From a virus (lineage: Duplodnaviria > Heunggongvirae > Uroviricota > Caudoviricetes): 33,510 bases of DNA. The notes below the pieces were generated by a model. It had not been told where the DNA came from. It saw only the letters and a list, made by a program, of their open reading frames with translations, and made no database searches. Both the position numbers and the translations under genes were made by a program. Positions 29,383-30,884 of this stretch are shown one piece after another. Location: the IMG/VR virus record IMGVR_UViG_2703718823_000008. The stretch is one strand, 5' to 3'. Position 1 is the first letter of the stretch. Each line of letters opens with the position of its first letter.

Positions 29383-29580
29383 GAATTATCCTATAAATCA
29401 TTCTTTATTGTTTAGTTGTTAATTATTTTTAATCTGTCTTGTCAGAAAGTGCGAAATCGATCCTGTATTTACATTTTGTTACGTAATATAAATTGAACTA
29501 AGAATTTGTATTAAAATATTTTAATTTTTGTTCATGACATCTGAATGCATGAATAGTTCAGTTTAAATAAGGATTAAATC
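29383..29580 (+). promoter_or_regulatory. AT-rich promoter-like leader of the porin moron
   Basis: About 200 bp of very low GC directly upstream of the porin gene inside an otherwise tightly packed tail operon. Confidence 0.35.
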
Positions 29581-30675
29581 ATGAAAAAAATGACAGTGGC
29601 ACTTTCTGCTGTAGCAGTTGCAGTGATGTTTGCTGCGGGGGCGCAGGCAGCAGAAGTTTATAATAAAGATGGTAATAAACTGGATCTTTACGGGCGTGCA
29701 ACCGCTCTGCATTACTTCTCGGATGATAAAGGTAATGACGGAGATCAGACTTACGCTCGTCTCGGCTTTAAAGGCGAAACGCAGATTAATGATCAACTGA
29801 CCGGATTTGGTCAGTGGGAATACCAGTTCTCTGGTAACAAAACGGAATCTGAAGGTTCCGCGGGAAATAAAACCCGTCTGGCATTTGCAGGTCTGAGATT
29901 TGCTGATGTTGGTAGCATTGATTACGGTCGTAACTACGGTATTGCTTACGATGTCGGATCATATACTGACGTACTGCCAGAGTTTGGTGGTGATGGCTGG
30001 ACTCAGACCGATAACTTTATGACTGCCCGAACTTCCGGAGTTCTGACCTACCGTAATACAGATTTCTTTGGGCTGGTTGATGGTCTGAATTTTGCGGCGC
30101 AGTATCAGGGCAAAAATGAGCGCGATGACCTCCAGAAGGCCAATGGTGATGGGTATGGTTTCTCAGCCAGCTATGAGTTTGATGGTTTTGGTCTCGTAGC
30201 GGCGTACACGAAATCTGACCGTACTGATAAGCAGGTTAATGGAGGAAGCTCTGTTGCCAGTGGTAAATATGCTGAAATGTGGGGGGCTGGTCTGAAATAT
30301 GATGCCAATAATCTGTATATTGCGACAATATATTCAGAGACCCAAAATATGACGGCTTTTGGCGATAAGGTTAACGGCATTGCGGATAAGGCAGAAAACG
30401 TTGAAGCTGTAGCGCAATATCAGTTTGATTTTGGTTTACGTCCATCACTGGCATTCCTGCAGTCTCGTGGGCAGGAGGTTATAGTTGGTGGGAAAAACTA
30501 TGGGGATCAGGACCTGGTTAAATATATTGATGTTGGAGCAACATATTACTTCAACAAAAATATGTCTACCTATGTTGATTATAAAATTAACCTGATTGAC
30601 GAAAACAAATTTACTCAGAAAGCCGGTATTACTACAGATGATATTGTTGCTGTGGGTATGACTTATCAGTTCTGA
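29581..30675 (+). CDS. General bacterial porin (OmpC/OmpF/PhoE/NmpC family), phage-encoded moron
   Basis: 364-aa ORF with signal peptide [38 protein letters not shown] and C-terminal beta-barrel signature ending in F. Confidence 0.9.
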
Positions 30676-30848
30676 TTGTTGCTGGTAAGTTAATGGTTAC
30701 AGGCCGTCTGCCCTTACAGGCGGTCTGTATCAATGAAAACAGTGTTTTCATTGGTCACTGCAATCAGCAATTGCCATCTGGCATATGCTGATTTAACTTT
30801 CTGTTATTACCTTTATTGGTTTTATTTTAAATTGGACTTTTATTGTTC

Positions 30849-30872
30849 GGGGCGCGGTTGCGCCCCTTTTTT
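30849..30872 (+). terminator. Intrinsic terminator closing the porin moron, just upstream of gene L
   Basis: 7-bp GC stem GGGGCGC/GCGCCCC with loop GGTT followed by T6. Confidence 0.55.
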
Positions 30873-30884
30873 ATGGGCGGATAT

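Follow-up and report, generated by a model that had tools for sequence, protein, structure and literature searches.

The general porins Lc of phage PA-2 and NmpC of DLP12 (qsr') are encoded on prophages between the antiterminator gene Q and the lysis genes (Q-S), and are transcribed against the direction of that region. OmpC is the receptor of PA-2, and PA-2 lysogens replace OmpC with Lc. The segment between the nmpC stop codon and its terminator is the locus of IpeX, an RNA that reportedly lowers OmpC and OmpF in experiments by post-transcriptional inhibition; how it does so has been a puzzle for 20 years. Here we analyze a porin gene that lies between the tail genes M and L in a 33,510-nucleotide stretch of viral DNA (IMG/VR record IMGVR_UViG_2703718823_000008; Caudoviricetes). 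All coordinates refer to this whole stretch, which we call the window. The insert that carries the gene is a cassette of 1502 bp at 29383..30884 on the + strand. The interpretation we favor, with moderate confidence, is that it is a self-contained lysogenic-conversion moron of the Lc/NmpC-IpeX kind, housed in an alternative M-L slot, that would act as a porin swap and exclusion module.

A porin cassette between tail genes M and L

The window covers the late region of a lambdoid prophage and contains Q, tRNA genes, lysis, terminase, portal, capsid and tail tube genes, and the tail genes H, M, L, K and I. A prophage integrated at ompW in E. coli S19-651 is 99.9% identical to it, the sole large difference being an IS600 element in the S19-651 portal gene. 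In that copy the IS600 splits the portal gene and the tape-measure gene is frameshifted; the window copy is free of both defects. The initial annotation had proposed that a porin gene was inserted between M and L, which are adjacent in lambda, and gene-order comparison bears this out. Gene M, encoding a minor tail protein (29041..29382, +; Pfam Phage_min_tail, E 3e-33), follows the tape-measure gene H (25782-29048), and L (30885..31583, +; Pfam Phage_tail_L, E 1e-91) begins only after the cassette. In phage BP-4795 M and L abut with a one-base overlap of stop and start codons (TGATG) and the porin is absent. The M-L flanks match 151 phage records, in none of which the insert is covered, and in about 150 of the records M adjoins L without a porin as in BP-4795. 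Alignment to the BP-4795 junction places the exact bounds of the inserted DNA at 29383-30884, as originally annotated, and shows that the 3' terminal codons of M differ from those of insert-free relatives.

The base composition sets the insert apart. GC content falls from 55–65% in the flanking tail genes to 24% upstream of the porin, the AT-rich leader that had been noted at the outset, and is 34–48% inside the gene. The porin (29581-30675) is the single open reading frame (ORF) in the 1502 bp between M and L. No flanking direct or inverted repeats, insertion sequence elements, att-like sites or mobility genes were found around the insert, only short repeats at chance level. Because the identical M-porin-L arrangement occurs in several complete E. 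coli chromosomes, an assembly artefact is ruled out. An extra gene of deviant composition between genes that are adjacent in related phages is a moron in the sense of Hendrix and Juhala. The cassette also has its own terminator, invariant across alleles, and, as a putative promoter for the lysogen, conserved candidate hexamers that fall below scan threshold, with an OmpR-like box.

The porin gene (29581..30675, +) is an intact ORF of 364 amino acids (aa) whose product spans the entire Pfam Porin_1 profile (PF00267; positions 1-337 of 337, E 4e-143), in agreement with its initial description as a complete OmpC/OmpF-family gene. Among proteins of solved structure the best matches are OmpC chains (E ~1e-134; 3upg_A has E 9e-135), with OmpC, PhoE and OmpF structures at E 1e-135 to 1e-104. 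A Shine-Dalgarno sequence read as AAGGA (29569..29573, +) is invariant in the alleles. The translation begins with a Sec signal peptide (29581-29649, +), carries the L3 constriction motif PEFGGD and ends in GMTYQF, with the C-terminal aromatic residue for BAM. At 61–64% identity to solved porins, the protein is predicted to form a trimeric 16-strand β-barrel channel, and its family suggests that it functions as a secreted general porin of the NmpC/OmpD lineage.

Amino acid identity is 72–73% to DLP12 NmpC, the porin of phage ev099 and P7 NmpC, and 61–64% to OmpC, OmpF, PhoE and OmpN. The gene thereby falls within the NmpC/Lc/OmpD lineage, yet the M-L porins make up a separate clade with 80–100% identity inside it (85–94% between proteins). 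The PGAP label 'porin OmpC', read as orthology with chromosomal ompC, was rejected: K-12 OmpC is 64% identical, no nearer than PhoE or OmpN, and the locus is a prophage tail operon. The label does not signify orthology because the NCBIfam 'porin OmpC' model, which the protein matches with 519 bits against a cutoff of 484, is a subfamily-level model that covers both phage porin clades and names the Q-S phage porin equally.

Pairwise dN/dS among seven porin alleles is 0.05–0.17 while dS reaches 1.0–1.4, a mark of strong purifying selection on the porin; every allele examined keeps an intact ORF. Variation between alleles is concentrated in the surface loops, and the window allele is without a 25-aa extension of loop L5 that all the other M-L alleles carry. 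The window porin is itself a recombinant mosaic, with residues 1-205 identical to the 92% allele group (compared with the L014 allele) and the remainder diverged.

We surveyed the distribution of the cassette in 5426 complete E. coli genomes and in the viral contigs of IMG/VR. DNA resembling the M-L region is present in 1906 of the 5426 genomes, and the M-porin-L arrangement in 91 (86–91 by search), or about 1.7% of complete genomes. The insert alone is detected in 105 genomes, always on the chromosome, in allele groups of 100%, ~92%, ~85% and ~83% identity. Four loci from the ~85%, 83% and 92% groups were opened (L003, L004, L005 and L014), and the porin lies between M and L in all four. One of the four, in mouse strain 8178, has a lambda-type U/V/G/T/H tail and an M protein only 49% identical. 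In IMG/VR, contigs with an 80–100% identical porin have M upstream and L downstream in 30 of 30 cases. Where the porin is 73% identical, it is flanked by the holin gene and Q and runs in the opposite orientation, in 50 of 50 contigs. The Q-to-lysis location and opposed transcription typical of Lc and NmpC are therefore not shared by the M-L porin. The initial annotation had drawn the contrast in location, which proves sharper than it stated. Its further statement that the position is unusual stands in relation to the NmpC/Lc slot; the arrangement is not unique to this phage.

The Q-S cassette is nearly complete in 2384 of the 5426 genomes (44%) and is thus ~25-fold commoner than the M-L cassette, which is concentrated in Shiga-toxigenic E. 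coli (STEC) and bovine lineages. The M-L form was found in none of the sequenced phage isolates searched; a low-stringency search of phage records with the insert alone returned only 60–80% identical porins at other positions. A scan of bacterial species representatives gave no relative above 72% identity outside E. coli, a result of little weight for spread since each species is represented by one genome. Literature searches for a porin at the M-L junction or in a tail operon returned nothing relevant. One lead, the 'phylogenetically distinct porin Ec042-2121' of the enteroaggregative strain EAEC 042 (PMC2808357), was dropped as a candidate M-L porin: the 042 lambdoid prophage that we located has M and L adjacent and no porin, and Ec042-2121 itself was not located. 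Judged by these comparisons, the M-L porin is a recurrent, old and selected clade. Lambdoid tail operons have a stable slot for cargo where M meets L, hidden by annotation that names the gene 'ompC'.

These data bear directly on the notion that the locus is a decaying or accidental insertion, or an assembly chimera, in which a chromosomal porin fragment without function was captured by illegitimate recombination. Partial degradation of the prophage in some hosts, as seen in the S19-651 portal and tape-measure genes, would be in keeping with it. The comparative data refute it: the same arrangement recurs in 91 complete genomes and 30 viral contigs, the low dN/dS extends over saturated dS with the ORF always intact, and the nearest chromosomal porins are just 70–72% identical and do not have the long 3' untranslated region (3'UTR) described below. 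We regard this explanation as extremely improbable.

The 3'UTR and its predicted targets

The most informative part of the cassette, absent from the initial account, is its 197-nt structured 3'UTR (30676..30872, +). The porin stop codon ends at 30675 and the T-run of the terminator at 30872, so that the segment lies between stop codon and terminator exactly as IpeX does. Its minimum free energy is -73.3 kcal/mol (z -6.7 against shuffled sequence). The fold comprises hairpin 1 (30697..30730, +; 14 bp, with compensatory changes in 3 pairs), hairpin 2 (30731..30753, +; 10 bp, compensatory changes in 4 pairs), hairpin 3 (30762..30793, +), of which the outer 7–8 bp are kept in all alleles and the inner part is deleted in some, and an intrinsic terminator (30849..30872, +). 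The terminator, GGGGCGCGGTTGCGCCCC followed by T6, has a 7-bp all-GC stem and a 4-nt loop and is invariant in the alleles; it merits the word 'strong' that had been applied to it. The three hairpins and the terminator are kept over 12 allele sequences (10 distinct), with 99.2% of cells paired and 8 pairs changed on both sides. The covariation score of 0.243 compares with 0.151 for shuffles (none of 500 reaching the observed value) and at most 0.09 for slid registers. The 3'UTR evolves 3- to 10-fold more slowly than the synonymous sites of the porin.

A covariance model was built from M-L 3'UTRs only and used to search 218 kb; its E-values are rough owing to short calibration. It matches nmpC-type 3'UTRs over their full length with 38–49 bits (E 1e-7 to 1e-10). 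The DLP12 nmpC 3'UTR, the ipeX locus, scores 38.1 bits (E ~5e-8), the ev099, E. albertii and IMG/VR Q-S loci 38–43 bits, and P7 nmpC 48.7 bits; every Q-S and P7 UTR tested was matched. A single further match in the 218 kb has E<0.1 (E 0.024), and it falls on hairpin 2 of the 3'UTR itself, a palindrome, read on the reverse strand. Plain local alignment of the M-L 3'UTR with ipeX is weaker (p ~0.011). On the combined testimony of sequence and structure, the M-L 3'UTR is homologous to IpeX. In Citrobacter, Enterobacter and Salmonella the chromosomal OmpD-type porin genes are followed by a ~45-nt terminator and nothing more, which indicates that the long UTR is a phage-specific addition.

Rfam searches of the whole window at the gathering threshold, and of 29300-30950 at E<=10, gave no match in the cassette; no MicC, MicF or IpeX model matched. 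Over K-12 micF (L006 2017-2174) our covariance model gives a weak, non-significant full-length match (13.6 bits, E 0.14). Two further candidates were discarded. A small ORF of 59 aa over the 3'UTR (30733..30912) was rejected because allele indels, including a 13-nt deletion, are not multiples of three. A promoter for an internal small RNA (sRNA), TTGCCA and TAACTT separated by 17 nt and lying 5' of the segment described next, was rejected as unconserved, since its -35 element falls in a segment deleted from the L004 and L109 alleles.

The best conserved stretch of the UTR, TTAACTTTCTGTTATTACCTTTATTGGTTTTA (30793..30824, +), is mostly unpaired and is situated between hairpin 3 and the terminator. 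We refer to it as the seed. It is complementary to ompC mRNA at -37..-4, a region that takes in the MicC site as well as the Shine-Dalgarno sequence, and to ompF mRNA at -23..-3. Target predictions were made with 32-nt windows and shuffle controls; full-length RNA duplex predictions were rejected for their unrealistically long duplexes. The predicted interaction with ompC has an energy of -28.3 kcal/mol and consists of two helices, one of 15 contiguous bp that covers the Shine-Dalgarno sequence and one of 8 bp at the MicC site. None of 2000 dinucleotide shuffles (z -5.8) and none of 1500 GC-matched genomic windows reaches this match, and the corresponding ipeX segment has an equivalent 15 + 9 bp interaction at the same place of ompC.

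Natural seed variants give a consistent picture. The z-scores for ompC and ompF, respectively, are -5.6 and -2.45 for the window seed, -5.2 and -5.0 for L004, -4.2 and -3.1 for L109, -4.6 and -2.25 for ipeX, and -3.35 and -4.75 for P7. Against phoE, ompN and the cassette's own leader the five seeds yield z -0.8 to +1.0 (-0.4 to +1.0 for the window seed), or no complementarity. In the L004, L109 and P7 variants the pairing is moved toward the start codon and toward ompF. The Q-S seed is near-invariant over more than 50 loci. Of the 5426 E. coli genomes, 5359 have an ompC leader with 99% identity or more, making the K-12 leader a fair proxy for the host target.

Two other complementarities were recorded. 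An invariant unpaired 9-mer between hairpins 2 and 3, GGTCACTGC (30754-30762), is the complement of GCAGTGGC, a motif common to the ompC (-50..-42) and ompF leaders, and could be a second contact site. Part of the seed (30800-30816) is complementary at 15 of 17 positions to codons 49-54 of the porin itself, in loop L1 (29726-29742); this recalls the targeting of the ompD coding sequence by MicC and was judged to be at chance level among many similar pairs.

Taken with the published IpeX phenotype, the complementarity suggests that the 3'UTR represses OmpC and OmpF. We are evenly divided over a broader proposal, that the M-L and Lc/NmpC cassettes are two-part porin-swap modules. Their 3'UTR (IpeX or its M-L homologue) would act as a direct antisense RNA on the Shine-Dalgarno and start regions of ompC and ompF, with alleles retuned to ompC (window, ipeX) or to ompF and the start codon (L004, L109, P7) and with their own leader immune.

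Against this stand several considerations. When the whole UTR is shuffled and its best window taken, the ompC match has p ~0.04 (6/150) and that of ipeX ~0.05, and the two values are not independent, the UTRs being homologous. The predicted unpaired probability of the seed is ~0.46. IpeX has been stated to have no complementarity to ompC and to act indirectly (PMC10690425), a statement with which the seed complementarity of both the M-L UTR and ipeX disagrees.

Some of these points lend weight to another explanation, in which the cassette is a porin moron and nothing more. The porin would be an extra or alternative channel with effects on permeability, on tolerance of bile or antibiotics, on the range of receptors for colicins or phages, or on antigenic variation. 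Its mRNA would only be stabilized and terminated by the long 3'UTR, leaving OmpC and OmpF untargeted. The porin is indeed strongly selected, with its variation mostly in surface loops including the 25-aa L5 indel, and hairpins right after stop codons commonly protect mRNAs. The published denial of IpeX-ompC complementarity and the unconstrained p ~0.04 fit it equally. This explanation does not account for the most conserved part of the UTR being the unpaired segment between hairpin 3 and the terminator, nor for the specificity of all five seed variants, which retain complementarity to where translation of ompC and ompF begins but have none to phoE, ompN or their own leader. For chromosomal relatives a 45-nt terminator suffices, and the homologous ipeX RNA reportedly does lower OmpC and OmpF. 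We consider it unlikely that the porin is the whole story, while granting this explanation an appreciable chance.

Predicted expression of the cassette and a possible porin swap

The AT-rich 5' control region (29383..29580, +) was compared across 13 distinct alleles. The sequences diverge widely (K up to 0.55) while discrete blocks are kept: AAAGTG at 29446-29451, GTTCATGACA and TGAATAGTTCAG. Within the 5'UTR the motifs TGACATC and AATAGTTCA are common to the M-L porin, nmpC and ev099. A candidate OmpR box, TTTACATTTTGTTACGTAAT (29468..29487, +), resembles the ompC C1 and ompF F1 sites; the C1-C3 and F1-F3 sequences were first confirmed in the K-12 loci. The start of this 20-mer, TTTACATT[TC]T, is invariant in all alleles. 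The L004 allele is like C1 at 16 of 20 positions, and L014 has 17 contiguous nucleotides in common with the ompC promoter. The OmpR-like pattern occurs once in the window, where 0.01 occurrences are expected. Downstream lies a candidate sigma-70 promoter made of conserved blocks (29493..29522, +), with -35 TTGAAC (29493-29498), an 18-nt spacer and -10 TATTTT (29517-29522). The predicted start near 29530 would place the OmpR-like box at about -62 to -43. The hexamers could act as a weak promoter of the activator-dependent type.

The OmpR-like box, the weak hexamers, the terminator and the purifying selection together make it likely that the cassette is transcribed independently of the tail operon. 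Indirect support comes from a Q-S homologue of the porin in prophage Perceval, which is expressed 10-fold over background in the uninduced LF82 lysogen (PMC9928086). Some observations weigh against this interpretation. The hexamers agree with consensus at 8 of 12 positions, a consensus scan reported no promoter on the + strand, and for the M-L cassette itself expression is something we infer. In addition, lc is said to be regulated by catabolites and temperature and not to depend on OmpR; the OmpR box may not function.

The regulatory sequences upstream differ between porin clades. DLP12 nmpC and ev099 have half of a CRP-like site and P7 a full palindrome, in the role that an OmpR-C1-like box would fill in the M-L clade. 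A CRP site upstream of the M-L porin was considered and rejected, as only the L110 and L111 alleles, and not that of the window, come near to consensus. The P7 palindrome, TGTGATTTTGATCACA, lies at L013 about 2910-2930, upstream of nmpC, and the DLP12 and ev099 half-site is at the aligned position. The clades may answer to different host regulators.

Insertion of the cassette has altered the tail operon. The ancestral translational coupling of M and L (TGATG) is destroyed, and the cassette supplies a replacement ribosome-binding site, GGGCGGA, with the ATG of L (30875..30887, +), conserved in all alleles. A strong terminator is also set 12 nt 5' of the L start codon. We place the start of L at 30885 (ATGCAGGAT). 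A TTG and an ATG that lie in frame farther upstream were set aside, since in the L003 allele that ATG is not in frame with L. In lambda, Q-modified polymerase reads through terminators. Given this, and the presence of Q in the window (4965..5654, +; Pfam Phage_antiter_Q, E 1e-88), L-K-I-J would still be expressible late.

This arrangement raises the alternative that the porin is a passenger of the late operon, with no functional promoter in the cassette, and is made only from the Q-antiterminated late transcript, for example to change the envelope before lysis or to decorate vesicles or debris. Its orientation along the tail operon, unlike that of nmpC and lc antiparallel to Q-S, would suit such a role, as would the failure of the consensus scan to find a strong + strand promoter. 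A terminator directly after the gene, 12 nt before L, is sensible only for transcripts that are not antiterminated, and the 200-nt upstream region is conserved in blocks that include an OmpR-like box unique in the window. The Perceval Q-S homologue, 10-fold above background in uninduced LF82 (PMC9928086), also argues for expression in the lysogen. We consider the passenger explanation distinctly improbable.

We return to the porin-swap module and to how it would operate. In the lysogen, host RNA polymerase would start at the weak promoter (~29493-29522), probably aided by OmpR bound to the C1-like box (29468-29487), and the transcript would stop at the terminator (30849-30872), which would keep L-K-I-J silent. 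The mRNA would encode a secreted 16-strand general porin of the NmpC/OmpD lineage, and its 3'UTR segment 30793-30824 would pair with the ribosome-binding regions of host ompC and ompF, lowering the host porins and sparing its own leader. The net effect would be a porin swap on the lysogen surface, with an outer membrane that stays permeable. During lytic growth Q-modified polymerase would read through the terminator, and L would be translated from the new ribosome-binding site.

What such a swap might achieve is hinted at by the tail tip protein J, whose gene lies just beyond the window and was read from the 99.9%-identical S19-651 prophage. The C-terminal 320 residues of S19-651 J are 78% identical to those of J from phi330, and the divergent 8178 prophage, which also has the M-L porin, has a J C-terminus 80% identical to phi330 J. 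Phi330, a long-tailed Stx phage, needs OmpC as its receptor, as established by knockout and complementation (PMC12502783). Given this likeness of the J tip to that of a phage dependent on OmpC, the swap would take away the receptor that phages of this type use, which would exclude superinfection and limit the loss of released virions. Several points temper this: the J sequence comes from outside the window, 78% identity does not prove the same receptor, and phi330-type J is also common in prophages without the porin. The J match therefore fits a role in receptor removal and exclusion and does not prove one.

Porins set the permeability of the outer membrane, including antibiotic entry, and are major phage and colicin receptors and dominant antigens. 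If the proposal is correct, a prophage that supplies a porin and silences those of its host would reprogram permeability, receptors and antigens in one step. Direct pairing would overturn the published view of IpeX as an RNA without target complementarity that acts indirectly, and would link the porin module to the exclusion of OmpC-dependent lambdoid phages. The comparative data already recast the question of how IpeX acts on the two host porins as a base-pairing model open to direct test, for which natural seed variants are at hand.

Other cargo and comparison with known systems

Several further features of the window and its relatives were noted. Three tandem copies of the STnc100 sRNA family (Rfam RF02076; 121–172 bits) lie at 8406-8618, 9088-9283 and 9348-9549 on the + strand, in the Q-to-lysis region downstream of two tRNA genes (7431-7503 and 7516-7589). 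The stxAB slot of Stx phages, which follows Q, a methylase and tRNAs and precedes a nanS-p-like esterase gene (9768-11756), contains no stx gene here. It holds instead a gene (7871-8299, +) whose 142-aa product has a TolA domain at its C-terminus (Pfam, E 3e-22). This protein could serve as a decoy or an exclusion factor, directed at colicins that depend on Tol or at filamentous phages. The ORF at window position 14564-14905 (+), annotated in the S19-651 copy as a fragment of a 'TonB family protein', is a second envelope-related cargo gene, and a TonB fragment is among the expressed morons of prophage Perceval in LF82 (PMC9928086). At the early-late junction is a divergent IbrA/IbrB-like pair (1251-3106, -), consisting of a PAPS-reductase/DUF3440 protein and a ParB-N-like protein. 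Past the right end of the window, the S19-651 prophage carries after J (L001 28118-38146) Lom/Ail, a YadA-like adhesin and an S6 (SPATE) autotransporter protease. In phi330 the next junction of the tail operon, L-K (L179 4906-6501), has a different, three-gene insert encoding a hypothetical protein, an Arc-like repressor and an Ant anti-repressor. It therefore seems that cargo can generally be housed at the gene junctions of the M-L-K-I block.

As a moron the cassette resembles lambda lom and bor and HK97 gene 15, the last also inside a tail operon. Like them it is an extra gene of deviant composition between genes adjacent in relatives; it brings a terminator with it and is presumed to act in lysogenic expression or exclusion. 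It differs in encoding a major porin and, by prediction, a regulatory RNA.

The seed invites comparison with the trans-acting sRNAs MicC and MicF. The element GTTAT-TACCTTTATTG resembles the MicC 5' end GTTATATGCCTTTATTG, followed by TTTTATTTT, and the same stretch of the ompC leader is predicted to be bound. The M-L RNA is not a member of the MicC family (RF00121), which gives no match even at E<=10, the 5'-end local similarity having p ~0.025. Unlike MicC and MicF, the seed sits inside the 3'UTR of a porin mRNA instead of in a free-standing divergent gene, and its predicted pairing also covers the Shine-Dalgarno sequence.

OmpD/NmpC-type porins of Salmonella, Citrobacter and Enterobacter belong to the same lineage, with 70–72% identity. 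They differ in being chromosomal and in having a short 3' region with a simple ~45-nt terminator and no seed. NmpC of P7, a P1-like plasmid prophage, has 72% identity to the M-L porin. Of the matches to the covariance model, the P7 3'UTR scores highest (48.7 bits), and the P7 seed, like the M-L seed, shows complementarity to ompF (z -4.75) and to ompC (z -3.35). In contrast to the M-L cassette, P7 nmpC resides in a P1-type genome between odaA and ssb and has the perfect CRP palindrome upstream.

Lc of PA-2 and NmpC of DLP12 are the closest clade compared, being prophage-borne general porins with 72–73% amino acid identity. They share with the M-L cassette homologous 5'UTR motifs, a homologous long structured 3'UTR, the same type of terminator and a pre-terminator motif, CTTCTGTTAT...TTACC[CT]TTTATT, complementary to the regions where translation of ompC and ompF starts. 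Lc and NmpC lie at Q-S and run antiparallel, whereas the M-L porin is co-directional with the late operon. The M-L protein is ~27% diverged, its 3'UTR has an extra third hairpin, and the cassette is ~25-fold rarer and absent from the phage isolates searched. The M-L junction is thus a second, previously undescribed slot for cassettes of the Lc/NmpC-IpeX type, occupied by a rare clade with a regulatory flavor of its own.

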